Shown here piece by piece: positions 184 through 15,384 of a stretch of 15,384 nucleotides of DNA. The stretch comes from a virus. Made by a program: the position numbers and the translations under genes. A model generated the notes under the pieces. That model saw only the letters and a list, made by a program, of their open reading frames with translations, searched no databases and was not told the DNA's origin. Within the stretch, counting starts at the first letter, position 1, and every line of letters starts with the position of its first letter. The stretch lies in the UHGV virus genome UHGV-1769846, one strand, 5' to 3'.

Positions 184-1086
184 TCAGTAATTATGTACTG
201 AAGGAGGTAATTCTTTATTCTTAAGTCTCATCCATGCGGAAAGATTCGTTGGTCCGTCTGGCTCATTGATATCAACATCTCGTGTGTGATTGATTAAAAC
301 GTCTCTCGCCATATCGATAATACGGGAGAACTCATAACCGCAGTCATGACATCTGCCGGAATAGTTCGATTGAATTTGTTTTAGCGCCGGATACAGTTCG
401 CGGAATAATGCCTGTGAGCGGTTGGCATAATCCCATAGCCATACAAGGCTGTTTGCTTCTTTTGCAGAAAGCTCGTTGGTTTTCTTCTCTTGTTTGCCGA
501 TGAACTCACCTTCAAGCACTACCCTGTGGATGTACTCTACTGCTTGTGGTATCTGAGATGCATCAAGCTCTTCAATACTTTCCACATTGAAACGCTGATG
601 AATCATTGCATAAGCTTCTGGGTACATTAGATGCTTTTTGCTGACTAGCATATTTACAGCATCACGAAGCGGAGTCCTGTCATCAACAGATGTTTTCTTC
701 CGTGCATTTGCTGCCTCTCCCTTTGTCCAGTAGTCATGCAGCACAGTAAAGCATTCTTCCTGGTACTGAATCAGTTTATCGCGGATGTCAGCACGAACTT
801 TCTCAGGGTTGATGCTGAACAGCCATCCATTTAACTTCTTCAAAGGAAGGCAGAGTAGCTTACGAAGCTTACCATCAGCGGCAACCATGTTCATATGAAC
901 ACAGTTGAATTTGCTAATCTGCTTCATGAGTTTTGTTTGCTGCGTTGACCAGCTCATTCCGAGGTTTTCAACGATTGGCTTCATCGCAACATATGCAACT
1001 CCGGCAGCCATGGCGGTGATAATTTGCTGACCGTTGAATGGCACGTAAGAGGTGTTCACTGCTTCTAAAATTGCTATACTATTCAT
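184..1086 (-). CDS. ant: Antirepressor (Ant-like, 300 aa)
   Basis: Downstream of arc as in P22 immI. The track ORF begins at a GTG at 1152, but the ATG at 1086 has a GGAGA Shine-Dalgarno 9 nt upstream and gives 300 aa, the length I recall for P22 Ant. N-terminal region resembles phage antirepressor (AntA-type) domains. Confidence 0.75.
1072..1080 (+). promoter_or_regulatory. Candidate extended -10 promoter (TGcTATACT) for an antisense sar-like RNA
   Basis: TGCTATACT on the plus strand inside the first codons of ant, pointing away from ant toward arc. Position is analogous to Psar of P22. Confidence 0.35.
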
Positions 1087-1087
1087 G

Positions 1088-1166
1088 TTGGTTTTTCTCC
1101 ACGGATTTACCGACAACCGAAGCCCTGACTGTTCCAGCAGTTGGGGCTTCACTGTTTTGATTTCTT
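1088..1166 (+). ncRNA. Putative sar-like antisense small RNA covering the ant ribosome-binding site
   Basis: Candidate promoter at 1072-1080 and a plus-strand-specific terminator: 13-bp stem 1119-1131/1138-1150 with two G-U wobbles (A-C mismatches on the other strand), 6-nt loop, then ACUGUUUUGAUUUCUUUG. The transcript would be antisense to the ant SD at 1091-1100. Confidence 0.4.
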
Positions 1167-1318
1167 TGCCGCATCAAGCATCACTTCTGAAAACGTGCGC
1201 TTGCCACTGAATACTCTTTCTCTTCTCAATTTTTCGTTCGTGCCAAATGATTCGCCATGAACAAAATTTGGTCTTAAAATGGTAATCGCAATCTCTTTGA
1301 CTACTGCATCCAAGCGAA

Positions 1319-1471
1319 TCACACCGTTACCCCCTCTCTCTTCAGGCTGTCTATCAGGCGCTTGATAACCTCTGAGTTAAACGACCTGCACTCTTCCTTT
1401 GCCCTGCTACCGATAGCATCCTTTAACGACTGCGGCATCCTTACCAAAATCTTACTTATTTCTTTCTCCAT
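1319..1471 (-). CDS. arc: Arc-like ribbon-helix-helix repressor (50 aa)
   Basis: Translation ISKILVRMPQSLKDAIGSRAKEECRSFNSEVIKRLIDSLKREG aligns with P22 Arc (FNLRWPREVLDLVRKVAEENGRSVNSEIYQRVMESFKKEG). Start taken at the ATG at 1471 with GGAGGG 4 nt upstream, not the TTG at 1507 used by the track. Confidence 0.8.
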   Translation of the reverse strand: MEKEISKILVRMPQSLKDAIGSRAKEECRSFNSEVIKRLIDSLKREGVTV

Positions 1472-1507
1472 GTTACCCTCCACGCAAACAACTCTTTTCG
1501 AATACAA

Positions 1508-1565
1508 AAGATAGCAAAGTGAGTATATCTAGTCAAAATTTTTTTGCATACACTTTGCTATCAAA
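1508..1565. promoter_or_regulatory. Divergent immI control region (Pant-like promoter and candidate Arc/Mnt operators)
   Basis: Minus-strand promoter TTGACT (plus 1531-1536), 17-bp spacer, TATCTT (plus 1508-1513), upstream of arc. Inverted repeat arms ATAGCAAAGTG (1511-1521) and CACTTTGCTAT (1551-1561) flank a 29-bp AT-rich core. The plus-strand mnt promoter is not cleanly resolved. Confidence 0.5.
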
Positions 1566-1585
1566 TTGAATACCAAAGGTGTTAT

Positions 1586-1834
1586 ATGGCAAAGGGTGTG
1601 TCAATTTCTCCAACTACGGTAAGAATCCCTGAATCTTTACGCGAGGCTCTTGCTGTCAGAGCATCAAAAAATGGTCGCTCTGTTAACTCCGAGATCGTCA
1701 TGATTTTGCAAGCCGCGATTGATGAAGATAGGTCGCCAAAGTCAGTTGAGTCATTTGCTCAGCAAGAAGCTGATAAATTCAAAGAGGCGCTACTTGAGAC
1801 GCTAAAGACCATGTATGCTAAGGATGAAAAATAA
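1586..1834 (+). CDS. mnt: Mnt-like ribbon-helix-helix repressor (82 aa)
   Basis: Translation MAKGVSISPTTVRIPESLREALAVRASKNGRSVNSEIVMILQAAI...FKEALLETLKTMYAK resembles P22 Mnt in both the RHH region and the C-terminal helix. ATG at 1586 is preceded by AGGTG; the track's TTG start at 1544 is rejected. Confidence 0.8.
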   Translation: MAKGVSISPTTVRIPESLREALAVRASKNGRSVNSEIVMILQAAIDEDRSPKSVESFAQQEADKFKEALLETLKTMYAKDEK

Positions 1835-2370
1835 TGCTGCACACAATTCATTTCTTATGCCCTGTTAACACTGCCACTGTTGGGCAACTTCAGAACCACT
1901 GTCTCACCGCATTATCTCAAGGCGCAACTGAATTAAATATCCATATATCAAGTCAGGGAGGGGAAACTGCTGCTGGCTTTACTGCGTATAACTTTCTTAA
2001 GTCACTCCCTGTTACCGTTAGAACTCACAACATAAGCAATGTTGAATCCATAGCTAATATCGTTTTCCTGGCTGGCTCAGAACGTTTCGCAAACCCATTA
2101 TCAAGATTCCTGTTACATCCTCTATTATGGTGCTTTGCCTCCCCAGCCGCCGACCATGCCAGATTGAGAGAGTACGGGAAATGCCTCGATAACGATCTTG
2201 ATCGCTTCGTTGAGACGTTCAATATCGACATCGGAACCCATATTAGGTGGGCATCCCTGATAGCAGACTCGACCATTTTGGATGCTAACAAGGCTCTTGA
2301 GCATGGCATAATTAATTCCATAAAAACTGCAAGGCTGGCATCCAATCAGGCAAACTGGTGGGTTGTTTGA
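1834..2370 (+). CDS. ClpP-like (S14-type) serine peptidase homolog, 178 aa
   Basis: Start overlaps the mnt stop (TAATG). Sequence NIHISSQGGETAAGFTAYNFLKSLPVTVRTHNISNVESIANIVFLAGSERFANPLSRFLLHPLL parallels the ClpP core (YINSPGG...AG..IYD...V.T.C.GQAASMG..LL.AG....R...P.SRVMIHQP). Candidate triad Ser72, His95, Asp145. Confidence 0.7.
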   Translation: MLHTIHFLCPVNTATVGQLQNHCLTALSQGATELNIHISSQGGETAAGFTAYNFLKSLPVTVRTHNISNVESIANIVFLAGSERFANPLSRFLLHPLLWCFASPAADHARLREYGKCLDNDLDRFVETFNIDIGTHIRWASLIADSTILDANKALEHGIINSIKTARLASNQANWWVV

Positions 2371-2394
2371 TGGGTAAATCATGATTACTCCTTA

Positions 2395-2420
2395 TAAAAA
2401 ACCCACCTGACGGTGGGTTT
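2395..2420. terminator. Bidirectional rho-independent terminator between convergent operons
   Basis: Stem CCCACC (2402-2407), loop TGAC, GGTGGG (2412-2417). Flanked by an A-run (2395-2401), giving a U-run for the minus transcript, and TTT on the plus side. Confidence 0.65.
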
Positions 2421-2868
2421 AGTCAAACATAGTGTTTCTAAAGTCTCTCGCATACCCTGCTAACACTCTCATTCTATTATGATTGTTAGCAGACATGTGA
2501 GCTACAGGATGAAAAAGAGCAATCAATGAATACCTGTTCTCATCAAAAAGATTTTGTGCATAAACGAGAGCGGTATTGGATGTTTTATGCCACTGCAACT
2601 TTTGCGGTGTGCTGATATCTGTGCCATTTTTTATTGGCTCAAATTTATTTTCACCAATTGCTAAATGAAGGTGCATAAGGCCTGCATCTTCAATATCAGG
2701 AGGTCGATGATAAGAGGTGTCTCTGCCAAAATAGCTGGGCAACGTTCCCGTAGACTTGTAGATGATAAAATCATCTACAAGTGTTTGTTTTAAATCAGGA
2801 AACTCAACAAAAACCGGGGAGAAAAAATAGTCAAAACTATCCTGATTATATTCCACGGTTACTTGCAT
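2419..2868 (-). CDS. YafO-family toxin-like protein (149 aa)
   Basis: Motifs DDFIIYKSTGTLPSYFGRD, HLHLA, ALVYAQNLFDE, LIALFHP and NNHNRM line up with E. coli YafO as recalled (FISYKRDGVLPDIFGRD, HIHLA, HLVYCQGAFDE, LIAILKP, NNQMH). GAGGT sits 5 nt upstream of the ATG, and the start is 8 nt after the upstream gene's stop. Confidence 0.7.
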   Translation of the reverse strand: MQVTVEYNQDSFDYFFSPVFVEFPDLKQTLVDDFIIYKSTGTLPSYFGRDTSYHRPPDIEDAGLMHLHLAIGENKFEPIKNGTDISTPQKLQWHKTSNTALVYAQNLFDENRYSLIALFHPVAHMSANNHNRMRVLAGYARDFRNTMFD

Positions 2869-2876
2869 GTTTTACC

Positions 2877-3443
2877 TCAGTGGAAGTTACCAGAGTGAAA
2901 CACACGAGTCCCGTGCTCAGCAAGCGCACGCAAACCAGCCATATCTACGGAACTATCAAAAACAACCGGAACACATGAGCGTTGTTTAATAAGACTATTC
3001 AGGTTGGTTACGGCAGATCTGGCATCAGCAACAACGATATAGATATCTCTTGCGATCTCTTTAAAATCAGCAGAAGCTTCTTTGAATACCGATTTCATTG
3101 CCCCTTCAAGTCCTCTCAATTGATGCTCTATCAATCGAGACTTTTCTGGTTCAATGATAGACAACACATTGTCTACATTCTCATCGGTAGCGTTTGCAAG
3201 AACACGATAAGCGTATTTCAGCATTCGAGACAATTCTTTAATCGAAGACACCGCCTCATGAAGCTCATCATTAGCCCGTTCACTGCTGAATGAGGATTGA
3301 TGGTAAGCGTGCTGAACGTTATCAGTAACAACCACCTCACAACTGAACGCAGAAGCTTGCTGTAATAGCAAACCTATTGCGACTCCAGCTTTGGCAGCGT
3401 TCAAGCTAAACATTTCATCAATCCCATTAGTCTCATTGCTCAT
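2877..3443 (-). CDS. Hypothetical protein (188 aa), upstream partner of the YafO-like gene; no recognisable family
   Basis: ATG at 3443 with a strong AAGGAGG Shine-Dalgarno 5 nt upstream; the track's TTG at 3473 is rejected. Predicted largely helical, with no DNA-binding antitoxin fold that I recognise. Confidence 0.65.
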   Translation of the reverse strand: MSNETNGIDEMFSLNAAKAGVAIGLLLQQASAFSCEVVVTDNVQHAYHQSSFSSERANDELHEAVSSIKELSRMLKYAYRVLANATDENVDNVLSIIEPEKSRLIEHQLRGLEGAMKSVFKEASADFKEIARDIYIVVADARSAVTNLNSLIKQRSCVPVVFDSSVDMAGLRALAEHGTRVFHSGNFH

Positions 3444-3510
3444 ACAAACCTCCTTCTTATCGGAGATTATCAATAGCTATGCATCCATTGAATACACGCT
3501 ATGCGCAATA

Positions 3511-3539
3511 AGTTTACGTCACGTGATATCATTATGCAA
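3511..3539 (-). promoter_or_regulatory. Sigma70-like promoter with palindromic operator candidates for the 188-aa/YafO-like operon
   Basis: Minus strand TTGCAT (plus 3534-3539), 17-bp spacer, TAAACT (plus 3511-3516). The spacer holds overlapping palindromes TCACGTGA (3519-3526) and TGATATCA (3524-3531). Confidence 0.5.
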
Positions 3540-3618
3540 CCACCGTTCTATCACCGACTAACTTTACTCCCACTCCTATACATCATCTGGTATCCTGCGC
3601 AAAACTAAGGAGGTTGGT

Positions 3619-3969
3619 GTGAATGCTCAGTCTGTCATCATGGTTTTCCTTGGGCTGATTGTCGCAAAACTATATCCAGACTGGTGGAAAGGGGCATTAG
3701 CTACTGTCGCCATCTATTTGCTTTTATCCATCGTTAAGCGATCACTCGCTGAGACCGTAAATCAAGCAAAACGTTTCTCATTTAAGAGTTTAATAAACTA
3801 TGTTACTGGGCTTATTTTTTGCCTTTCAATTCTGATCGCTTCGGCTTTTTTGCCCGTATCAATAGCTAATTTTTTTGGCGCACCATATGAGGTAGGTTAT
3901 CTATTCTCTGTTTCCTGTCTTGCCATTGCTCTTCTTTACCTGTGGACGAGATCAAAGAATAAAAATTAG
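3619..3969 (+). CDS. Small integral membrane protein (116 aa, about 4 predicted TM helices); possible superinfection-exclusion type moron
   Basis: GTG start at 3619 with a near-perfect TAAGGAGGT 5 nt upstream. Four hydrophobic segments and a basic C-terminal tail (RSKNKN). Convergent with gene 16. Confidence 0.65.
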   Translation: MNAQSVIMVFLGLIVAKLYPDWWKGALATVAIYLLLSIVKRSLAETVNQAKRFSFKSLINYVTGLIFCLSILIASAFLPVSIANFFGAPYEVGYLFSVSCLAIALLYLWTRSKNKN

Positions 3970-3986
3970 CCATCCGTGGCTGCCAG

Positions 3987-6002
3987 TTATTGAGCTTCTT
4001 TTTGTGATGCCTGTGCGACTCTGGTGAGCGATTGTGTGACCGTACTGATCGCTATGTCATATGCTGTGCTACCTTTTGGCGTATTTGCCAGACGTAACAA
4101 GGCATTTCGTATAACAGGGCTTTCGTATGCCTTCGCAGCTCCTCCTACGACACCAGCAGCAGGAACAACAAACGCAGCCGTTTTTAGCATCCCCGCTAAT
4201 ACTGCTGCGTTTATGATGCCACCACCAACTAACAATCCATAAAGCTGCTGACCATTTAAGTTTTGAACGTTCGCTTTTGCCGCGTGTCTTGTATCGTTGA
4301 GGTATTTAATAACGCCGTCCAGTTCCTTTCCATGTACGCCTTTAAAGAAAGTTGCTGATTGCTTCCTGTTCCGGTGTAACGCATTAATAAACTTTTCAAC
4401 ACTAATATTTCCAGACGGATCAGTCGCCTTATCTACAGCATTCTGAACTATGGCTGCTCGTGCGTTTTGCCTACCATTGTCATCCAGAAGCCTGTAAAGC
4501 TGAGAACGTTCTGATGGGTTTTGGCTAAAAACGAGTTTTGTTACATCCTCAGGTGTAGCCTTGCCGCTGGCTATTGCCTTTTGAACGCGCGTTCTTCCCA
4601 TCATGTCATTGAATCTAGCCCATGAGCGATCAACCCTAGACATATTGGCAGCTTCTTCTGAGCCTAGTTTTTGGGATACTGCTTTTTTCATATCCGCTGT
4701 ATATGCCTTGTAGACAATATCGCTGGCTTTCTGGAGCGTGTCTTTATCAACAGTCTCGTTTGAATTCATGAACCGCTTTCGAAGGTCAGTTCTGTTTTCT
4801 CTCGCCAGACGCAGGTCATTGGGTCCGCTGGTGATATCGTCTTTAAATTGCTGCAAGACTTTTACCGCGGCTCTATCCTGAGATTTGCCCGGGCGGCTTA
4901 ACACGGCAATCTGATTGTCGATAGCTTTTACCGTGTTTGAGAGATCGACAGGGGTATCCCCCATAGCGTCAATTATGCGGTTATATCGCTTTCCTGCTGC
5001 CTCAATGAATTTTTGTTGCCCTTTAGTCGCAGATTCATAAAGCTGTTTATCAGAAATGCCACCCAGACCATCGCTAAATGTTCTGACTAAATTTTCTCGT
5101 GCTTGTTGTTGATTCAGCCGATTCTTACCGGTTCCAAAAAAAGGAACTCTTTCGCCTAATGTCTGAGCCTGACTCTGCATAAAGGTTTTATCTTTCAGCG
5201 TGTCACTGGTCATTAACGGCAGGTTTCTTTCCGACGCAAAATCGACAGCAGCCTTTGCTTCCGGTGACATCTCACCGCGAACAGCCCTGGAAACCGCACT
5301 AACTGTATTTTCCAGCCCCTTGCCAACACCACCAATGCCAGCAGAAATTACCGTTTGTGCAGGATCAATATCTTCTCCGCCAGCAAGGCTGGTGCCACCC
5401 TGTAGTGCTAAATCTGTAGCAGCTGATTTCCCTATGGCACCAAGCACCGTTCCAGCCCTGCCCGCTGGTGTGAACGCTAACGCATTAGCAAGAAACGAAG
5501 TCAGGTCTTGCGGTGATAAACCTGGCTTGTTCAGGGCATAATCACCGGATGGCAGGGAAACGATAGTGTTACCCTTCTCATCCTGCCTTAATTTCGCCCC
5601 CATACTCTGAAGAATCTTTTCCTGAGACGCGTCGGAGCCGAAAAGTTGAGACCATCCAGCCTTCAGGGCATCCATGCTTAGTGAGTTCAACTCAGGGGCA
5701 GCCCCAACATTTTGCAGTCTCTCCATTTCTGGTGTCATTCGGCTTTCACCGGTAACGGCATCGCGCATTGCAGCACCTAAAACAGCCCCTTGCTCAGCAG
5801 AGCGATCTAGTCCTTCCTTCTGCTGAGTGGCAAGCTGTGCATATCCTGATGCAAGTGAGTTGTCTGCTGGCGATTGCTGAACACCTTGTTGTGTTGGCGC
5901 TGACTGACCAGCAAAATACTCATCAATGGCGGACCCAATATCTTCCGTGCTCGTACCATCAGGAAAGGTAAATGTCTTACCATTTGCAGTTACTTTCATC
6001 AT
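3987..6002 (-). CDS. Ejection (injection) protein, P22 gp16 homolog (671 aa)
   Basis: Last gene of the gp7-gp20-gp16 trio by synteny. ATGA start/stop overlap with the upstream gene at 5999-6002. Large Ala/Gly-rich protein. Confidence 0.8.
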
Positions 6003-7450
6003 TCCACCGTAAATTGAATGCCTGATTTTGACGTGTAGCTACCTCCTGCTGATTGCTGAGTAGCTGGCTGTTGCCTTGATGATTTCTTCCCGCCATTACC
6101 AACATTAACGTTATATTGCTGGTTGTAATTGTCGGTATATTGCTGAATGTCGCGCATTGATTGTTGCAGCGCTTCAGGACTTGAGAAATCAGGCTTTGGC
6201 ATACCCTGAAAATACCTATTGGCCTCTGCTTCGGTGTTGATGCCAGATGCCCCCATATCTCGGGCTGCTGCAATCCCCTGATTTTGCATTTTGCCCATGA
6301 TTCGCTGTGCAGCGTTGTATAGCCTCCTCTCCTCAACACCAGATGCCCTGCTACGAATATCTGCACCAAGAGCAAAAGAACCTGAAGAACCTGTAATACC
6401 TGTCATGAAGCCAAGATCGTCAATTGATGCGCCAGAAATTGCATCAAGATCTTTCTTCATTTCGTAATTCTGTGCATTAGCTGCCGATGTAGCCGGAGCA
6501 GCAATAGAACTGGCGGGGACGCGAATCATATTGCCCTCGTTGTCTATTCCTTCGTAGAACGCATTAGCACCAGCGCCGTGAAGCTTCCTACCAACCGTTA
6601 CCGTTCTGCCATCTGCCAGTTGCACAACATTCTCCCCGCCAGCATCAGGACGACCTCGAACACGAAGATATGTCTTTTGTTGCTCTGGAGACAGGCTGTT
6701 GAAATATTGATATTCTTTAACAGATGCAGGAACAGCACCTCCAGCAGTGCGCAGGGAGTTTTCACGGCTAACAGCAATGCTTTGCGCCTTTAAACCTTCC
6801 CCAGCTTTATTGCTGCGAATCGTCTCTGCCAACTTGCCACGCTCAATATCCCGACCTTCCATTTGATCTTTGATATCGAAATACTTCTCATGACCGAGAG
6901 AAAATAGTGCCAGATTACCTGCGAAGTGCTGGAAGCCCTGCGGGTCATTAACCTGCATTTCCGCAATAGTTTCTGGAGGGATACCTAAACGACGCATCTC
7001 CTTTTCGTTATCCATCATGAACCTGCCAAATGCACCCGGACCAAGCGACGAAGCGACCTGAGCCTTAAGCGCCAGATTGCCAAAATCATCCCGCTGGGCG
7101 TCATCGACATACCCCATGCCTTTACGGACTTCCTCAAACTCTTCGGGGAATGCTGTAATAAGATTACGCATCTGCTCCCTGTCGCCGGACGCATAAGCAT
7201 CCGCATAACCTTTCTGGAATGCCGCTTTACGCTCCTGCTTTTGCTGCTGCTTATAAATATCAGCAACTCCAGCCAGACCACGAAGACCTGTCAGAGCAAC
7301 GTTATTTGCACCTGATCGAGCCAGTTCATTGTTTTCGCGGATCAGACCAAGCGTTGCGTTAATGTCGCTTGCCTTTGGCGCATTCTCATTTTGCGTACCG
7401 ATGCCAGCCAGAAACCCACCAGAATTAATACCCTGTTGCCACGTAGCCAT
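5999..7450 (-). CDS. Ejection protein, P22 gp20 homolog (483 aa)
   Basis: Synteny and size (P22 gp20 about 471 aa). AAGGG Shine-Dalgarno upstream of the ATG at 7450. Confidence 0.8.
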
Positions 7451-7460
7451 TGATTAACCC

Positions 7461-8150
7461 TTAAAACAGTGAACCAAGCAGACCAAGACCAGCACCAATA
7501 CCAGCCCCCCACGGAGTTGATAGCTCGAGAGCACTGGCTATGCCACCACCCAAAAGCGCACCGGATGCAGCACCACTAACACCCTGCTGCAATGCTGACG
7601 GTCGGTTGGCGTTTGCCGCCGCCAGTGCTGCACTTTGCTGCGAAATCTGACTCATGTTGTTGGCATATGTCTGCCCGGCGTTTGCCTGACCTTGCAGTGC
7701 GCCAAGACCAATATTTGCCAGATTCTGGTAGTTGTTCATTTGTCCAGATAGCCATTGCTGACCAAGCGTTGGTGCGATTGTTGCTAACTGATTACTGGTT
7801 GAGGTGGAACCCAATCCACCTGTTGCTTCCGCTGCCGCCAGACTCTGATAGCGAGCCTGACCTGCAAGGTCTTTATACTGCTGAGAGTTGTAATACTGGT
7901 TAAGTGCCTGACCTTGCCCCTCCAGAGACGATAAGTTCTCGAGGCTGCCGACATACTTCTCAGCCAGAGGAGTAAACGGCTTCAGGTTATTCATGATGGT
8001 GTTGAACTGCTGATTTTGCAGGTCTGCGGCATACTTCTGAGCTTCTGCGGCATACTTTGCACTTTTATCGGAGCCACCTTTCCCGCCTTTTTCAGGGCAA
8101 TAAGGTTCCTCGCCGCGCAGTTTTCTGCCCAGCTTAAATGCATATAACAT
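7461..8150 (-). CDS. Ejection protein, P22 gp7 homolog (229 aa)
   Basis: Same length as P22 gp7 as I recall it. Gln/Gly/Ala-rich with a Gly-rich hydrophobic C-terminus. GGGAGA Shine-Dalgarno upstream. Confidence 0.8.
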   Translation of the reverse strand: MLYAFKLGRKLRGEEPYCPEKGGKGGSDKSAKYAAEAQKYAADLQNQQFNTIMNNLKPFTPLAEKYVGSLENLSSLEGQGQALNQYYNSQQYKDLAGQARYQSLAAAEATGGLGSTSTSNQLATIAPTLGQQWLSGQMNNYQNLANIGLGALQGQANAGQTYANNMSQISQQSAALAAANANRPSALQQGVSGAASGALLGGGIASALELSTPWGAGIGAGLGLLGSLF

Positions 8151-8152
8151 GG

Positions 8153-8608
8153 CTATCTCCCGTGATTCAGGAAGTCGATTAGTTCTTCGCGTGTGGCGCT
8201 GTAAAACGTCACGTCATCCACGCCTTTGAAGTATTTCTTGATGGTTCCTACACGCTTAAGGCCAACCATTGCGCAGTACATCTGACCGTGGCGGAATTTG
8301 CGTGCAGCGAACGATGTGACGCACTGAACGGTGGTGTTAGTCAGAATGTATCGCCAGAACGCCAGCCCGATTTCCTTGCTGAATCCACGAACCTCTGGCA
8401 GGTACATGGCGTGGCAATCGAATGTCAGCGGCTGAATCTCCTGATAGTAAACAATGCCGCCGAACTGACCGTGCACGTTAACCTCAAAGTAACGGCATTC
8501 AGGTTTGTAGTCGTATCCATCACCGTTGTTGCTCCCGGCGATAATGTCAGGGTGATTTCCTACGGCTTCTATCAGGTCGATGTTTCGCGTTGGTTTGAAT
8601 GTAATCAT
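8153..8608 (-). CDS. P22 gene 14-like protein (151 aa), position-equivalent virion or ejection-assembly factor
   Basis: Lies between the tail-needle gene and the gp7 homolog, as gene 14 does in P22. ATGA overlap with the needle gene stop indicates translational coupling. Confidence 0.65.
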   Translation of the reverse strand: MITFKPTRNIDLIEAVGNHPDIIAGSNNGDGYDYKPECRYFEVNVHGQFGGIVYYQEIQPLTFDCHAMYLPEVRGFSKEIGLAFWRYILTNTTVQCVTSFAARKFRHGQMYCAMVGLKRVGTIKKYFKGVDDVTFYSATREELIDFLNHGR

Positions 8609-9309
8609 CAGTCAATCAGCCCATGTAATCTAAGTGCTGTTTCAAGCGCCAGAATACGCTGCCGCGCCTGCTCCAAACCTGTAGCGAGAGCTGCGACTTC
8701 GGATTGTGTGTACGTAGTGCCGACCGTGTATGACTGGTTAGCGTTGAATGAACCAAGAAGTGGCGTACCTGTGGCTGCAGTCCATCCGCTCTGCCTTGCT
8801 CCAACGACCTGAATTCCATCAACTGAATATGATGTTTTTACATCCAGCGGTGACGCAAGAGACTGCAATTCGGTTACGGTTTTCGATACGTAATCACTCT
8901 TAATGCCAGAGACATCGTTTTCTACGTCATCCAGTCTTTGGTCAACAGTGACCAGATGCGCCTGAATATCGATAACCTCATCCAGCAAGTAATCAACATC
9001 GCTACGCAGTACGACTATCTTCCCTTCGGCAGTTGTTAACCTGACCTCAAGTAGATTTATCGCTTTTGTGTTTGCGGTGATTCTTGCGTCGTGATCAGCC
9101 AGTTCGACATCCTGTTCATCGTTTTTTACCTGGGCATCGTAAGCGCCCTGACCAGCCTGATTTGCCTTCCCGGCAATTGCGCCGACATCAGCCCCCTGAT
9201 TAATGACATACAGCAGGTAAGACTGGCTGAATATATTGCGTGGAAGGATTGATGTATCGAGTCGTGTAGCCTGAATTGTTACCGGCTCATTGAGATTCGA
9301 ATCAGCCAT
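8608..9309 (-). CDS. Tail needle protein, P22 gp26 homolog (233 aa)
   Basis: N-terminus [77 protein letters not shown] is close to the P22 gp26 N-terminus as recalled. Same length, with a central coiled-coil-like heptad region. Confidence 0.9.
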
Positions 9310-10727
9310 TACTCAATCCTTATCTGGCAACCAGACAGAGTGACAGGTGACTTCGTGATAACGCGCAATTTGAAGCCGACATTTTTCCTGATGCGCCCTA
9401 CTCGCTTCCACAAAACACGTTTGTCGTAAACGAACGGTTCATTCTGCTCAATCATCTGCTCACGCCCGTAATTGATGCCGTCAGTGGTTGCAGAGAGAAA
9501 AAGGCGGTCAGCATACTGCGCAACGCCAGTTGACGACTCAACCTCAAGGTCGAAAACTCTGGCGTTATCCGCTTTGAACAACGGAGTAAACAGCAGGTGT
9601 TCCTGTTGCCTGTCGTACTGGCTGCTGATATCGAACTGCAATTTCCCTGTCATCGATTCAAGCTTATCGCCGCACGTAATTTGGTTGCCTTCGTAAATGA
9701 AGTCGATAGCGCGGTACACATCGTCATACAGGCCTGTTTTCAGTACACACCATTGCGGACCATTGGCGCTTGAAGATGCGTCGTACACGAGGACGTGGCG
9801 CGGCAGGTGAATAATCAGCAACTCATGAGCATCAAACCGCAACGATTCCATCACGCCATCAGCCAGTTCATCAGCAGTGTAGGAGCGGAGGATTTTCTCA
9901 ATGCTCGCGCTGGCTATTGGTGATACCTGACCGGAGCCGATGATGTATACAGAAGGCGCGCCTGTTGCCGGATTGCTGATGAACGCATACGAATCAGCAA
10001 ACGGCGTTTTGCAGTAAGTCCCGGCAATACCTTTCTGCACCATCAGCGATGGCTGTGCGACATACAAAGCGGCACCAACAGTGGTTGCACCAGTCATGGA
10101 GAAATATTCAATCGTTGATGAACCAAAGCAGACAATGAAGTCTCGCCATGTTCCGATGCCGATAATGCCGTCAGGCTGCGATTCTGCGCGATATTGTGCG
10201 CTGTATCGGTCAGGGTGCGATTCGTCTTCAAGGTCAGTAATAAACCATGAATCCGTGCCGTCTTTTGACCACGCATAACGCCCACGTAAGCGTGTAATGT
10301 CGCGGACTGAACCTAACTCATACTGCGTAAATCCGCTGTCTGCAGGCCAGTTTGAGACGGTTTTAACCGTGCCATCATAGCGATACTCAACCAGTTGACC
10401 ATTAACGCCTACAGCCTGAGATGTTCGACCATGCGCCATTGATACACGACCACTTCCGGCAACATCACCGACTTCACTTTCTCCTTTGTACAGCTTGCCG
10501 CCACACACGCGATAAACAGCATTCTGCGCCATGTTGTACTCAACTCCGCGCGATACACCGTTTACATCAGAGCGTTTGGCAATGCCCGGGAATGAGCGAA
10601 GATATCCGCTGCTGTTAAGGATTTCTTTGGGTGTAGCCAACATATTCACTGGCAGATAGTCGATATAGTCGGCGTTTCTAAAGTCTTTGCCGACACCTTT
10701 CATAAGCGGAAGTTGCTGAATCGGCAT
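9309..10727 (-). CDS. Tail accessory / head completion protein, P22 gp10 homolog (472 aa)
   Basis: Same length as P22 gp10 and same position between the gp4 and gp26 homologs. GAGGTG Shine-Dalgarno upstream. Confidence 0.85.
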
Positions 10728-10736
10728 TTATTCACC

Positions 10737-11198
10737 TCACGTACTCGGATCATCTTTCTCGATGTAAAACCGATTCCACGTAAACGCGCTTTTGTTACCA
10801 TTACCGCGAGGCATGTCATTTCGCCGCTCAAGTGGTGGTATTTTGGTTAAAGCGATACAGATTGTTTGATATGCACTGTCAGCAGCGGTAAGGAGAGCGT
10901 CTGACGGCTGAATGACGTTATCCATGCACACTTGCACAGCGAGTTTCAAAGCGACGCCATCATTTGCCCATGCAGGGATGCCTGAATCATCGTCAGGTAA
11001 CGGCATGATGCCGTTTTCTGTATCAGCAAACTGATACCCAAGCTCGATACCTTTCGCCTGCCATGCTGCCATCATGTCTTCGAGGTCATTAATGGCATCT
11101 TCAATTGCCTGAGGGTCAGCATCTGTCAACGTGGCATTGGAATACAGCCCAGCTTTTCGTAAAGCCTTTAGAACGAGATCACCCTTCGTTTTCGCCAT
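10737..11198 (-). CDS. Tail accessory / head completion protein, P22 gp4 homolog (153 aa)
   Basis: Immediately upstream of the gp10 homolog; size close to P22 gp4 (about 166 aa). Confidence 0.75.
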   Translation of the reverse strand: MAKTKGDLVLKALRKAGLYSNATLTDADPQAIEDAINDLEDMMAAWQAKGIELGYQFADTENGIMPLPDDDSGIPAWANDGVALKLAVQVCMDNVIQPSDALLTAADSAYQTICIALTKIPPLERRNDMPRGNGNKSAFTWNRFYIEKDDPST

Positions 11199-11367
11199 CT
11201 TCTTCCGCCTTAGCCACTTTTTGCTTCGTTGCGGTTTCTTCAGGAGTTTTTACCCAACCTTTTTTCAGGTGAGATTTAACTTCTTCGTCATCAACAATGA
11301 TGTAATCGACAGCAAACTGACCGCAGGTGATCATGTTGCCTGGCTTATAGAGCATTGTTCGTGCCAT
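11179..11367 (-). CDS. Small hypothetical protein (62 aa) between the coat and gp4 homologs
   Basis: ATG at 11367 preceded by GGGAGAAG, directly after the coat terminator. Acidic C-terminus. Overlaps the gp4 start by 20 nt. Confidence 0.4.
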   Translation of the reverse strand: MARTMLYKPGNMITCGQFAVDYIIVDDEEVKSHLKKGWVKTPEETATKQKVAKAEEDGENEG

Positions 11368-11380
11368 TGTCTTCTCCCAA

Positions 11381-11401
11381 TAAAAATGGGGCCGAAGCCC
11401 C
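11381..11401 (-). terminator. Rho-independent (probably partial) terminator after the coat gene
   Basis: On the minus strand: GGGGC, UUCG tetraloop, GCCCC, then AUUUUUAUU. Begins 8 nt after the coat stop at 11409-11411. Confidence 0.65.
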
Positions 11402-11408
11402 ACCAAAA

Positions 11409-12662
11409 TTACTGCCCAGCAATAACGATGCCCGTATATTCAGGAACCAGTACAGAGCAACCGTACAGAGTGGTGAAACGCGCAGTGGTTACGCCTTTGA
11501 TGTGGTCGAAGGAGTAAGACATGATCAGCGTAGCGCCCTGCTCGGTGGTTGCTGTCATTACCTGTGGACCCTGACCAGTTGGGAACGCCAGTTTGCCGTA
11601 CATCAGTTCAACAGAACCATCAGCCCAGAACAGGTTAGCAGGTGCTGCGTTCTTGTTGAGAATGGTGATTGCTGCTGATTCTGCCGGTTTGGCATCGACG
11701 TTTGCATATGGACGACTCGCAACATCAGTATTTTCAACAGGGAGAATCTTTGGAGAAATTGTTACGGTAGTTCCGCTAACAGCCAGAACACGGAATACCT
11801 GCGGTTGACCGGTGGTATCTTTTGTGATCTGGTGTACGGAATTCACACCGGCAATGGTGAACGCATCACCAACCTGCAAGCCAGATGCAGATACCGTAAT
11901 AGTCCCCTGTCGGTTATCAACTGGCATACCATTTGAATCTTTCGCTTCAACCTTGTGTTCAGGTTGGCCTGATACTGTCAAGGATTCAGTGCTTCCTTTC
12001 GGTAATCGACCAGAAATATCGGTCTTGTAGCTATCAAAGGAAGCAACCGGAGGGATCTGCGCTTTTTCGTATGCTGTCAGGGTTGCGCCCTGAGCGTAGG
12101 CTCGGTGACCAAGCTCGCCAGCAAGGTCTTTGTAGTTGAAGGGGTTCCAAAAAGAGCGGCGGTTGATACCCTGTGGCACACCAATCGCCGTCATGGTGGC
12201 ATCAATACCTGCCGCACAGTTCCACAAATCACGGCCCTGTGAACCAGTGGTTGAGTCAGCCATTGTGATCACGTTAGTAGCACGCTGCGTGACCATGGAA
12301 ATCAGGTCAGAGTCAATCTGTGCAGCAAGGCGCATACCTGCGGCGCGACCAGCTTCAGTTTTATGTTCCGGATCACGCATTTCACGCGCATCCAGAGTGT
12401 ACAGAATGTTTTTCGGCTCCTTGAACACTGAAGGAACAAGGCGCTGAACCAGTGCTGTTGGCGTTTTGCTGCTGAGGTCGAGGCCTTCCTCAATATTCAT
12501 GTGGTAATGCTGCGGACGATACAGAACATCACCTGCTCGCTGCATTGCTGTATCACCGGGACGGAATTTTTTAGCGTTACGGGAAACTACGCAGGCGGCC
12601 TCAAAGCCTTCAACGTAGTTTTCGAACATGATTTCAAGGTCTTTTGCTAATTGGTTAGCCAT
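11409..12662 (-). CDS. Major capsid (coat) protein, P22 gp5 homolog (417 aa)
   Basis: Follows the scaffold gene; size close to P22 coat (430 aa). Shares short motifs with it (FWAD, YANV). TGGAG Shine-Dalgarno upstream. Confidence 0.9.
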   Translation of the reverse strand: MANQLAKDLEIMFENYVEGFEAACVVSRNAKKFRPGDTAMQRAGDVLYRPQHYHMNIEEGLDLSSKTPTALVQRLVPSVFKEPKNILYTLDAREMRDPEHKTEAGRAAGMRLAAQIDSDLISMVTQRATNVITMADSTTGSQGRDLWNCAAGIDATMTAIGVPQGINRRSFWNPFNYKDLAGELGHRAYAQGATLTAYEKAQIPPVASFDSYKTDISGRLPKGSTESLTVSGQPEHKVEAKDSNGMPVDNRQGTITVSASGLQVGDAFTIAGVNSVHQITKDTTGQPQVFRVLAVSGTTVTISPKILPVENTDVASRPYANVDAKPAESAAITILNKNAAPANLFWADGSVELMYGKLAFPTGQGPQVMTATTEQGATLIMSYSFDHIKGVTTARFTTLYGCSVLVPEYTGIVIAGQ

Positions 12663-12680
12663 GCTTAATGCTCCAATAGG

Positions 12681-13574
12681 TTATTTTTTTGCCTTTTTAG
12701 CGGCGAAATACGGCGTCCAGTCACCAGTTTCCAGCGCCTTGGCTTTCAATTTGTCGAGGTTGTTGATTACTGCGCCGTTGCTCCCCTTAACCGTCGGGGT
12801 TGTGGCTGCCGTGGTTTTTGCTTTTGGCATGATTCTGGCCTTCGATTCGATACGTTCCAGCAGACGACCAATTGCTACGGGGTTGGTAGCTTCTGCCAGT
12901 TGCTTGCGCAGTTCAGCGTTGCGACCAAGCGCCAGAACAACGATTTCCGGCTTCTCTGACTCAAACAGGATCGCGTTTTGTGTCTCGATGGGGATTTCCT
13001 CGAGTACGGCCTGCTCAGCTTCCTGATAGCCAGGAACTTTGAGAGCCTTAACACGTTGCTGATATTTGGATAATCGCTCTTGATAGGCAGCCTGAAGCTC
13101 CTGCTCCTTCTGCTTGCGAGCCATCTCCTGTTGCTGGTACTTGCCATTATCCTCTGCCCACTTAGCCATGCGTTGCTGGTAGATTTCTTCATCGAAACCG
13201 ATGTCCTCATCATCCAGTTTTGGCATTCGCGGTGGTTGAGTGATTACCGGCTGCTGCTCGACGGGTTTCTGAGACTGACGCATCAGCTCTTTCAGCTCGC
13301 GGTCTTTCTCTTTAATCGTCTTGCGCAGGTGTTTTACCAGTCCATGCTCAGCGCCATCTTCGCTGGTTGGCGAATCCAGCTTTTCGTCACCAAAGTAGAA
13401 TTCCTGTTCTGATTCGTCGTCATCAGTTTCAGTAGCCTCCTCTGCATCATTGCCTGAGGACTCACTGCCATCTTCTGTTTCGACTTTTTCAGCCAGTTCG
13501 ACATCATCAGGAATCTGCTCTGACGCGTCGGTTTCGATTTCAACTTCTGGTGTGTTTTCTGCCATCTGGTCCAT
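12681..13574 (-). CDS. Scaffolding protein, P22 gp8 homolog (297 aa)
   Basis: Between the portal and coat genes. Highly acidic N-terminus, long charged helical middle, basic C-terminal tail (FAAKKAKK) consistent with a coat-binding helix-turn-helix. Confidence 0.85.
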   Translation of the reverse strand: MDQMAENTPEVEIETDASEQIPDDVELAEKVETEDGSESSGNDAEEATETDDDESEQEFYFGDEKLDSPTSEDGAEHGLVKHLRKTIKEKDRELKELMRQSQKPVEQQPVITQPPRMPKLDDEDIGFDEEIYQQRMAKWAEDNGKYQQQEMARKQKEQELQAAYQERLSKYQQRVKALKVPGYQEAEQAVLEEIPIETQNAILFESEKPEIVVLALGRNAELRKQLAEATNPVAIGRLLERIESKARIMPKAKTTAATTPTVKGSNGAVINNLDKLKAKALETGDWTPYFAAKKAKK

Positions 13575-13664
13575 TTGTTACCCCTGTTTACTCGATGTTC
13601 AGCCCATCGGAAGGCAATAGGGTGCCAGGCCTCATAAAGACAGCCATTGCACGTTATGGGTTAA

Positions 13665-15314: not shown

Positions 15315-15384
15315 AGCATCAGAGCGGTCTGAAGTGGTTTACTGAATTTGGCCACCTGAACAGAGGTGATATGCTCACCTCAGA

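Follow-up and report, generated by a model that had tools for sequence, protein, structure and literature searches.

A probable three-cassette arm of the 'ant moron' in a P22-like prophage of Escherichia coli

The window analysed here, the whole 15,384-nucleotide stretch of UHGV virus genome UHGV-1769846, carries at 1834–3969 what is likely to be the mnt-to-gene-16 arm of the 'ant moron' of a P22-like (Lederbergvirus) prophage from the E. coli ST95/K1 lineage (APEC-1 type), composed of three exchangeable cassettes. The original prediction had placed three unrelated coding units in this interval, between mnt (1586–1834, + strand) and the gene 16 homologue (3987–6002, − strand), and we recovered all three: a short ClpP paralog (cassette A), a YafO-type toxin gene with an upstream partner (cassette B) and a small membrane protein (cassette C). 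Fast-changing ant moron cargo of this kind is already described, and here it consists of three unrelated add-on cassettes with no demonstrated defence role; the functions we infer for them are modulation of ClpP, toxin–antitoxin activity and SieA-like exclusion, respectively.

Prophages in S88, APEC O1 and ATCC 11775 are 100% identical to positions 1500–4000 of the window, and our gene calls agree with the RefSeq annotation of E. coli S88. The mnt homologue encodes an 82-aa Arc/Mnt ribbon-helix-helix repressor (Pfam Arc, 41.8 bits; 'Arc family DNA-binding protein' at identical coordinates in RefSeq for S88), resembles P22 mnt in position and orientation relative to arc and ant, and is the first gene of the operon that holds the ClpP-like gene. 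To the left of the cargo, the rest of the immI module (184–1471, −) comprises, in RefSeq coordinates, ant (184–1086, −; Pfam P22_AR_N and P22_AR_C domains), a 57-aa open reading frame (1149–1322, −) and arc (1319–1471, −; Pfam Arc domain), together with the sar antisense RNA (1087–1153, +; Rfam RF00262, 83.9 bits against a gathering score of 43). The island is bounded on the right by the gene 16 homologue, which codes for a DNA ejection protein (RefSeq 'P22-gp16 family phage DNA ejection protein'). The genes run in the order ant, arc, mnt, cargo and gene 16, with a tailspike gene after ant in the S88 record, and the cargo, which has no assembly or lysis function, lies between gene 16 and gene 9 homologues, matching the position of the ant moron.

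The 'ant moron' was published in 2008 (Villafane, Casjens et al., BMC Microbiol; PMC2629481) as ten types among sixteen genomes, in rapid flux, with the APEC O1 prophage (APEC-1) included and shown in Figure 3. The present region resembles it in occupying the interval between gene 16 and gene 9 homologues, in holding immI (mnt, arc, sar and ant), in having no assembly role and in carrying variable genes. In that paper the genes were drawn as unknowns; the present assignments add a short ClpP of PpClpP1 type, a YafO pair whose partner family is without a match in Pfam, and three separately exchangeable slots with conserved junctions. The proposal of a moron-accumulation hotspot is borne out by this publication, by a gene set that varies among P22-like phages and by a GC content unlike that of the structural genes (41.8% in 1834–3969, compared with 49.7% in 3987–15384, where every 2,136-bp segment has at least 47.3%). 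The proposed AT-richness relative to the structural genes is therefore real but not peculiar to the island: immI genes on its left (1–1833) are low as well, at 43.4% GC. In the suggested check of GC content and codon usage, it was GC content that set the region apart from the structural genes, although the ClpP-like gene (45.1% GC) has a GC3 of 0.44, inside the structural-gene range of 0.405–0.618.

The cassettes use two orientations, not the three once proposed, and alternate +/−/+. Strong terminators had also been expected between the units, but only one strong hairpin was found, at 2399–2420 between the convergent ClpP-like and YafO-like genes, with a 9-bp stem (AAACCCACC/GGTGGGTTT) and, on the minus strand, a T-run. 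Its folding energy is −14.5 kcal/mol for the + strand (z −3.2) and −14.9 kcal/mol for the − strand (z −2.6), and it is probably a terminator on both. The 42-nt block at 2379–2420 recurs with 100% identity in Salmonella phage Emek, whose annotation marks it as a terminator, and in E. coli genomes without the flanking genes, while ClpP-like matches to phiv205-1 and EC.P3 stop exactly at the hairpin, at position 2420. Judged by these alignments, the hairpin is a conserved boundary sequence. After gene 16 there is a terminator-like site of five pairs (3968–3981, −), a weak hairpin followed by a T-run, which folds at −7.4 kcal/mol on the minus strand (z −0.9) and −8.4 kcal/mol on the other.

Cassettes B and C are parted by a putative divergent promoter region of 175 bp (3444–3618) common to both, rather than by a terminator. 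This conserved linker aligns in the window and in three Salmonella-type prophages (L019, L020 and L021) despite their differing slot genes, and its conservation spans the ribosome-binding site of the slot gene (AAGGAGGTTGGTG, + strand of the window), a block of putative promoter and ribosome-binding site being kept ahead of four different slot genes. On the strand of the 188-aa gene of cassette B, a candidate −35 element (TTGCAT) and −10 element (TAAACT) are separated by a 17-nt spacer, with TA.ACT invariant; a consensus sigma-70 promoter scan of the gap gave no site of at least 9/12.

The cassettes have different distributions. Among 5,426 complete E. coli genomes, cassette A is present in 155, cassette B in 55 (all copies at least 99% identical) and cassette C in 280, with all three together in 51; K1 ExPEC/APEC strains carry the complete island in near-clonal form. 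Other genes occupy the same three slots in P22, CUS-3, EC.P3, E212, phiv205-1 and the three Salmonella-type prophages. At the cargo position, P22 has orf59a and sieA; in CUS-3 there are a second mnt, genes of 199 aa and 139 aa, the latter YafO-like, and hkcB; in EC.P3, E212 and phiv205-1 a PanA (SocA_Panacea) gene with its partner comes after the ClpP-like gene; and the Salmonella prophages have the 188-aa/YafO pair with different neighbours. The comparison of the gene 16–gene 9 interval across P22-like phages, another suggested check, accordingly returned no conserved gene set. The original prediction of a combined exclusion/defence locus fares poorly: each unit is found without the others, and their independent distribution argues against one combined system. 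The defence-system check pointed the same way, PADLOC-DB v2 models giving no credible match to any of eight proteins. At E ≤ 0.1, PADLOC-DB v2.0 yielded nothing for the ClpP-like, YafO-like or membrane proteins, and the only matches were a ZorA coiled-coil tail to the 188-aa protein (14 bits) and BrxA to Mnt (12 bits). We propose that the region would be not one system but three independently exchangeable cassettes inserted at conserved boundary sequences.

Cassette B is a strictly paired set of two genes on the minus strand. The downstream gene (2419–2868) encodes a 149-aa YafO-family toxin (PF13957, 78.9 bits against a cut-off of 25) whose match is full-length (profile positions 3–101 of 101); it belongs to phrog_1651 and is named 'type II toxin-antitoxin system YafO family toxin' in RefSeq. 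Against the NCBIfam YafO equivalog model (NF007377) it scores 79 bits, under the cut-off of 153, so it is not the chromosomal YafO equivalog. The upstream gene (2877–3443), which ends 8 nt before the YafO-like start codon, encodes a 188-aa all-alpha protein, the putative cognate antitoxin. This protein matches phrog_8416 (function unknown) over its full length and has no assignment in Pfam, NCBIfam or PADLOC; a Pfam search of 18 family members (the window protein and 17 relatives) also gave no match. The family is rare, with 19 representatives at E ≤ 1e-3 among 1.84 billion proteins. A YafO_toxin gene lies 8–9 nt downstream of the 188-aa homologue in every context read (n = 6 independent), and partner homologues at 65%, 54%, 36% and 26% identity are all paired with a PF13957 gene, toxin and partner identities declining together across the pairs. 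Such pairs occur in P22-like, lambdoid and other prophages, and in HK639 and prophage L022 the pair stands alone within tail gene clusters. In the slot of cassette B, CUS-3 carries another YafO pair and EC.P3 a PanA-type antitoxin gene (PF13274) followed by another gene without a Pfam match. The 188-aa family, found upstream of a YafO-like gene in phage DNA wherever examined, seems to be unreported.

The AF2 model of the 188-aa protein has a helical core (pLDDT ~88), and its predicted fold has no significant match in the PDB. Most type II antitoxins have a DNA-binding domain, and none was recognisable in this protein; the N-termini of its most distant homologues resemble signal peptides, which would be odd for a cytoplasmic antitoxin. 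Cassette B shows the generic type II layout of two adjacent co-oriented genes, with the partner upstream, tight spacing and conserved pairing. It shares with E. coli YafN–YafO a full-length Pfam YafO_toxin protein, the order of partner first and toxin second, and an 8-nt gap. Unlike YafN–YafO, its toxin is not the YafO equivalog, its partner is a 188-aa all-alpha protein without a Pfam match where YafN is a small canonical antitoxin, and the module is found in phage contexts only. The PanA (SocA/Panacea)-type toxin–antitoxin cassettes of EC.P3, E212 and phiv205-1 share its slot, strand and two-gene layout and likewise sit between the conserved hairpin and the gene adjoining gene 16, but their proteins, a PF13274 antitoxin and a different toxin, are unrelated. 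YafO-family toxins are ribosome-dependent mRNA endonucleases. Cassette B would be read as a two-gene operon of type II toxin–antitoxin architecture, in which the 188-aa protein most likely neutralises the toxin, perhaps through an invariant C-terminal segment; should the partner be lost or inactivated, for example during phage infection or when the prophage is lost, translation arrest would follow.

Cassette C (3619–3969, +) is convergent with gene 16, and its product, 116 aa long from a GTG start or 109 aa from the RefSeq ATG at 3640, is a predicted membrane protein. Description of the island as replacing the usual sieA region was overstated: the slot and orientation are those of sieA, the gene of the P22 superinfection exclusion protein, but sieA occurs in only 22 of 66 P22-like phages and is not usual (Leavitt et al., mBio 2024; PMC10883804). 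The 116-aa protein resembles P22 SieA in adjoining gene 16 in convergent orientation, in having a putative promoter region of its own and in being a small polytopic membrane protein, in its case by prediction from four hydrophobic segments or helices. SieA differs in its 164 aa and three transmembrane domains and has no sequence similarity to the 116-aa protein (BLASTP E 0.29), from which the FxRYPxEAxxFNK motif of SieA types A to C (PMC10883804) is missing; on these two grounds we rejected homology to types A to C.

The 116-aa protein belongs to no family in four libraries, with only sub-threshold Pfam and NCBIfam matches, and its own narrow family takes in E. coli, Edwardsiella, Yersinia and Salmonella, at identities of 71% or more. 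A low-confidence AF2 model (pLDDT 58) gave no structural relative among viral proteins. Copies at ~88–90% protein identity adjoin gene 16 homologues in other E. coli prophages, and of the six unrelated families seen in this position, five are predicted membrane proteins (SieA, the 116-aa protein, HkcB, and proteins of 75 aa and 297 aa). The cassette C product would most likely work at the inner membrane, where it might oppose the entry of DNA from related phages.

Cassette A (1834–2370, +) encodes a 178-aa ClpP-like protein (Pfam CLP_protease, PF00574, 44.4 bits against a cut-off of 20.2). The gene shares one base of its start codon with the stop codon of mnt, which makes it a member of the mnt operon and not a free-standing unit. 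The profile match covers positions 37–180 of 182, the N-terminal axial region for ClpX/ClpA docking being absent. The best solved relative is PpClpP1 of Pseudomonas plecoglossicida (PDB 9UXT; PLoS Pathog 2026, PMC12900304; E 1.6e-35 over residues 3–175), to which the match is full-length with an equal N-terminal truncation. Residues S72 and H95 correspond to catalytic residues in alignments with solved ClpPs and are invariant in 20 family members, and the catalytic Ser and His are invariant in homologues down to ~52% identity in many genera; the column of the canonical catalytic Asp varies, with D, N, S, Q and K among its residues, and is followed by a column of S or A. PpClpP1 likewise conserves Ser and His with a non-canonical third triad position, a Pro, and keeps its activity (PMC12900304). 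Its N-terminal truncation abolishes ClpX binding, and it forms a homotetradecamer as well as a heterotetradecamer with canonical ClpP (PMC12900304).

Across the P. putida group the chromosomal surroundings of PpClpP1 orthologues are syntenic, whereas the enterobacterial short ClpPs occur in prophages as single-gene morons or else coupled to mnt. The homologues of Klebsiella, Chromobacterium and Proteus prophages are single genes antisense to neighbouring lytic genes, and recurrence of a short ClpP as a single-gene moron of enterobacterial prophages seems to be unreported. In NCTC11151 the ClpP-like gene is interrupted by an IS3 element and the 188-aa/YafO pair is intact, which indicates that the ClpP-like gene is dispensable; IS3 transposase also lies inside split matches in E10 and FY26. 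From its apparent translational coupling to the gene of the Mnt maintenance repressor, we infer that the paralog is made in the lysogen. By analogy with PpClpP1, it would most likely form tetradecamers, possibly mixed with host ClpP, and alone would most likely be unable to dock ClpX.

Other readings concern either single genes or the island as a whole. It is highly improbable that the ClpP-like gene encodes a head maturation (prohead) protease serving virion assembly and is not accessory cargo. Although phrog_94, 'head maturation protease', is its best PHROG match (E 7e-21) and the phiv205-1 record MN340231 annotates it in this way, we rejected the assignment because the NCBIfam head maturation model (NF045542) gives 49.3 bits, below its cut-off of 120, and because the gene lies outside the morphogenetic cluster, in the mnt operon and in the opposite orientation to the morphogenetic genes. 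The cellular-type paralog PpClpP1 matches far better, P22, CUS-3 and most relatives building the same virion lack the gene, and its IS3 disruption in NCTC11151 sits badly with an assembly role, as does the exit of P22 scaffolding protein from the procapsid without proteolysis. Cooperation of all three units in one integrated exclusion/defence system, with the ClpP-like protease, for example, degrading the 188-aa antitoxin so that the toxin fires and the membrane protein serving as sensor, is also very unlikely. Such a design would fit with the units being adjacent and 100% identical in 51 E. coli genomes and outside lytic operons, and Lon or Clp proteases classically degrade type II antitoxins. 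The unequal distributions (155, 55 and 280 genomes) count against it, as do Salmonella-type prophages with the 188-aa/YafO pair and other slot genes but no ClpP-like gene, EC.P3 and phiv205-1 with a different two-gene cassette beside the ClpP-like gene, the solitary pairs of HK639 and L022, the intact pair beside a disrupted ClpP-like gene in NCTC11151, and the lack of a credible PADLOC match for any protein.

A selfish or neutral cargo, in which the YafO pair is solely a prophage-stabilising addiction module and the ClpP-like and membrane genes are passengers without a phage-exclusion role, perhaps acting on host physiology or virulence in ExPEC, is rather unlikely. Toxin–antitoxin modules on mobile elements often act as addiction systems, and the PADLOC result, the IS3 insertion in NCTC11151 and the near-clonal occurrence of the complete island in K1 ExPEC/APEC strains are in keeping with this account. 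Set against it are the invariant Ser and His of the ClpP-like family down to ~52% identity in many genera, which indicate selection for activity; the membrane proteins of five of six families in the slot adjoining gene 16, one of which, SieA, is a proven exclusion protein; and the neighbouring slot, which repeatedly holds toxin–antitoxin-type pairs, a class with documented anti-phage members. At the opposite extreme, it is possible, if doubtful, that the 188-aa/YafO pair is a phage-restricted toxin–antitoxin or abortive-infection module with a new antitoxin family, that the enterobacterial short ClpP is a subunit brought in by prophages to re-tune host ClpXP, that the 116-aa protein is a fourth non-homologous SieA-like injection blocker, and that the ant moron is a three-slot defence hotspot comparable to those of P2 and P4.

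We favour the ant moron arm with three exchangeable cassettes. The region as such is textbook phage mosaicism and adds little on its own. If the reading of cassette B holds, the 188-aa proteins would be a new cognate partner family for YafO-type ribosome-dependent toxins, the pair lying in phage or prophage DNA in every examined context. If that of cassette A holds, temperate phages would spread PpClpP1-type truncated ClpP subunits in Enterobacterales, and prophages may tune regulated proteolysis in their hosts. Non-homologous membrane proteins in the sieA slot, if cassette C acts as proposed, could be compared with SieA to learn how the entry of DNA from short-tailed phages is stopped. ST95 K1 ExPEC/APEC strains commonly carry the prophage, and any exclusion phenotype would therefore bear on phage therapy there.

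The window carries a P22-like prophage in reverse, with structural genes on the minus strand (3987-15314) and the immunity I (immI) region in the leftmost 4 kb. That region includes ant (184-1086, minus strand; P22_AR_N and P22_AR_C domains), the sar antisense RNA (1087-1153, plus strand), arc (1319-1471, minus strand) and mnt (1586-1834, plus strand), and the gene 16 homologue follows at 3987-6002 (minus strand). The sar match is full-length (Rfam RF00262; 83.9 bits against a gathering score of 43), indicating that the immI module retains P22-type antisense control of ant. Between sar and arc lies a 57-aa open reading frame (ORF) (1149-1322, minus strand) that overlaps the arc stop codon; P22 has only sar between arc and ant. 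This ORF is a full-length match to phrog_17642, is ‘hypothetical’ in RefSeq and had no match in a Pfam search. Prophages of E. coli S88, APEC O1, ATCC 11775 and other ST95/K1-type strains are 100% identical to the window at 1500-4000, and the RefSeq annotation of the matching E. coli prophages gives the same genes as those called in the window.

Three units occupy 1834-3969, and their coding content, as originally predicted, is borne out by Pfam scores, ORFs and hydrophobic segments. Unit 1 is a ClpP-like gene (1834-2370, plus strand; Pfam CLP_protease), whose start codon overlaps the mnt stop codon and which therefore belongs to the mnt operon. Unit 2 is a minus-strand pair, in which a 188-aa ORF (2877-3443) ends 8 nt before a 149-aa YafO-like gene (2419-2868; YafO_toxin, PF13957). 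Unit 3 encodes a 116-aa membrane protein with four hydrophobic segments (3619-3969, plus strand). The units thus lie in two orientations (plus, minus, plus) rather than the three initially described. At 41.8% GC, the interval is AT-rich against the structural part (49.7%, lowest segment of the same length 47.3%), but low GC is shared by immI (43.4%), and the ClpP-like gene (45.1% GC, GC3 0.44) falls inside the structural-gene GC3 range. Strong terminators had been proposed between the units; one boundary has a strong hairpin (2399-2420, folding at -14.5 and -14.9 kcal/mol on the two strands), but the site at 3968-3981 is weak and the gap between units 2 and 3 is a divergent promoter region with no strong hairpin. 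Folding the sequence recovered the 2399-2420 hairpin, which the built-in terminator scan had not called, probably since extension of the stem takes up the T-run.

Comparison with the P22 gene order (16, sieA, orf59a, mnt, arc, sar, ant) resolves the interval into three slots. The ClpP-like gene takes the orf59a position downstream of mnt, the YafO pair lies between the positions of the mnt terminator and the sieA promoter, and the membrane protein gene has the position and orientation of sieA. Other phages fill these slots differently. CUS-3 carries a second mnt, a 199-aa gene with a 139-aa YafO-family gene (PF13957, 43.6 bits), and hkcB; EC.P3, E212 and phiv205-1 keep mnt and the ClpP-like gene, followed by a SocA/Panacea antitoxin gene and a Pfam-less gene; and Salmonella-type prophages have the 188-aa/YafO pair with different neighbours and no ClpP-like gene.

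The junctions between the slots are abrupt. Alignments of phiv205-1 and EC.P3 to the window stop at the hairpin, and the 42-nt block that contains it (2379-2420) recurs at 100% identity in Salmonella phage Emek, whose annotation calls it a terminator, and likewise in E. coli genomes devoid of the ClpP-like and YafO genes; the block behaves as a conserved recombination boundary. On the other side of unit 2, window 3444-3625 aligned with three prophages (L019, L020 and L021), and conservation takes in the divergent promoter region as well as the ribosome-binding site in front of the slot gene (the gene adjoining gene 16). The genes behind this ribosome-binding site differ, encoding 116-aa, 297-aa, 140-aa and 107-aa proteins, which places an exchange point at the start codon.

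The original prediction was largely right in its observation. Because the interval differs in GC content from the structural genes (41.8% versus 49.7%), and because no one gene set is syntenic across P22-like phages, its reading as a moron hotspot stands. That reading is, however, already published: the interval was named the “ant moron” in 2008 by Villafane, Casjens and colleagues, who recognized ten types in sixteen genomes, the APEC O1 prophage among them (PMC2629481). Nor does the interval replace a ‘usual’ sieA region, since only 22 of 66 P22-like phages carry sieA (PMC10883804). For the three units themselves, no prior description turned up in literature searches on prophage ClpP paralogs and on YafO in phage defence, or in two E. 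coli defence-discovery papers.

The ClpP-like protein scores 44.4 bits against CLP_protease (cut-off 20.2), with a match that starts at profile position 37, so the N-terminal 30-35 residues of ClpP are missing. Among solved structures, by far the nearest is that of PpClpP1 from Pseudomonas plecoglossicida (PDB 9UXT, E = 1.6e-35; canonical ClpPs, about 1e-7). PpClpP1 is a truncated paralog with a Ser-His-Pro triad, low intrinsic activity and no ClpX binding; together with canonical ClpP it can form mixed tetradecamers, with enhanced ClpX-dependent degradation (PMC12900304). Ser72 and His95 are invariant across 20 family members, and the canonical Asp column is variable. By analogy with PpClpP1, we infer that the unit 1 protein may co-assemble with host ClpP. 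A role as head protease was rejected, as the NCBIfam head maturation model gave 49 bits against a cut-off of 120 and the gene lies outside the assembly cluster.

The enterobacterial relatives of unit 1 differ from PpClpP1 in genomic setting. In Klebsiella, Chromobacterium and Proteus the homologue is a lone gene antisense to the lytic genes beside it, with a different location in each of three prophage types, and lambdoid PhiR12 phages carry an ant, arc, mnt and ClpP-like block within the tail gene cluster; together these identify the enterobacterial branch as phage-borne cargo. In the long-tailed lambdoid Escherichia phage PhiR12_1 (L003 2606-4618), the block, with an arc-like gene, lies between tail genes K and L and is 97.9% identical to the window in a match that starts inside mnt, which implies that an immI module with the ClpP-like gene moves between phage morphotypes. 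PpClpP1 itself is chromosomal: at least 80 species genomes, almost exclusively from the P. putida group, carry orthologues at 80-99% identity, and the flanks are syntenic in the eight genomes compared, so PpClpP1 is not prophage-borne. The E. coli copies also include disrupted ones. In NCTC11151 (L106 705-2484), an IS3-family element at the 5' end has made the ClpP-like gene a pseudogene beside an intact YafO pair and membrane protein gene, and in strains E10 and FY26 split matches overlie an IS3 transposase.

The YafO-like protein of unit 2 is a full-length family member (78.9 bits, cut-off 25) but not an equivalog of chromosomal YafO (79 versus 153 bits), and it had no match among PDB sequences at E ≤ 1. 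Its 188-aa partner is unassigned in Pfam, NCBIfam and PADLOC, and 18 family members likewise had no Pfam match. This family is rare, with 19 representatives at E ≤ 1e-3 among 1.84 billion proteins and three matches in 50,697 phage records (HK639 twice and, in part, a Pseudomonas phage). The AF2 model is all-alpha, with confident core helices (pLDDT about 88) and a poorly modelled C-terminal helix; conservation within the family is highest over the last 28 residues (VFDSS...FHSGNFH). When this model was compared with the PDB by Foldseek, only generic helical bundles came up, none significant (best E = 0.06).

The pairing of the two genes is conserved. Partner homologues at 65%, 65%, 54%, 36% and 26% identity to that of the window have a 144-149-aa PF13957 gene 8-9 nt downstream in all five contexts fetched, which span P22-like, lambdoid and other prophages, and identity declines in parallel for toxin and partner. 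In HK639, a 145-aa gene begins 8 nt after a 38%-identical homologue. Given this pairing, and the PanA-type antitoxin pair that sister phages carry in this slot, unit 2 is most economically read as a type II toxin–antitoxin-like module with a putative new antitoxin family. The antitoxin assignment calls for caution on two grounds: no DNA-binding domain is recognisable in the 188-aa partner, and its distant homologues begin with what resemble signal peptides. In five of these (P0104, P0106, P0108, P0109 and P0111) the N-terminus is Sec-like, basic at first, then hydrophobic for ~13 residues, with an AxA-like site; one of them, P0106, whose context was read, pairs with a YafO-like gene, an odd feature for a presumed cytoplasmic antitoxin. 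For the window protein, reading of the sequence led us to reject a lipoprotein or secreted protein: the N-terminal region is net acidic, the hydrophobic stretch spans about 9 residues (mean hydropathy estimated at close to 1.1), and Cys35 is not conserved in the wider family.

A similar pair in CUS-3 (L006 4578-5581) occupies the same interval on the opposite strand, its genes ECRS218_0007 (199 aa) and ECRS218_0008 (the YafO-family gene) being annotated as hypothetical. The 199-aa protein is not detectably homologous to the 188-aa family (pairwise E = 0.011; profile comparison probability 0.4%, E = 0.15), and the two pairs have architecture alone in common. Within lambdoid tail clusters, HK639 (L107 2962-3980) and a further sequence (L022 2586-3613) each encode a 190-aa homologue and, downstream, a protein of ~145-148 aa; the downstream gene in L022 is a PF13957 YafO_toxin, and in HK639 the pair is flanked by the tape measure and minor tail protein genes. 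Such placements mark the lambdoid tail gene cluster as a second moron site for the 188-aa/YafO module.

The unit 3 family is narrow (at least 71% identity; E. coli, Edwardsiella, Yersinia and Salmonella), and its members are named ‘hypothetical protein’ at most in every source. Other E. coli prophages and remnants have copies at about 88-90% protein identity, adjoining their gene 16 homologues. BLASTP found no similarity to P22 SieA, and the low-confidence AF2 model (pLDDT 58) had no significant match, SieA included, among BFVD viral structures. In the contexts examined, five of six unrelated families adjoining gene 16 are predicted membrane proteins (SieA, the unit 3 protein, HkcB, and two proteins of 75 aa and 297 aa, the latter tail-anchored). 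SieA is proven to act against the gp16/gp20 ejection conduit (PMC10883804); together with this, the pattern makes a SieA-like role for the unit 3 protein plausible but unproven.

A combined exclusion and defence locus, as had been suggested, is unsupported. In PADLOC-DB v2, the ClpP-like, YafO-like and membrane proteins matched nothing at E ≤ 0.1, the 188-aa protein had only a 14-bit match, and none of the eight window proteins scanned had a usable one. Among 5,426 complete E. coli genomes, unit 1 was matched in 155, unit 2 in 55 and unit 3 in 280, with all three together in 51; their independent distributions and many partial combinations argue against functional integration. The interest of the interval lies in two unannotated features, a phage-restricted family of YafO-like partners and a prophage-borne family of short ClpP proteins.
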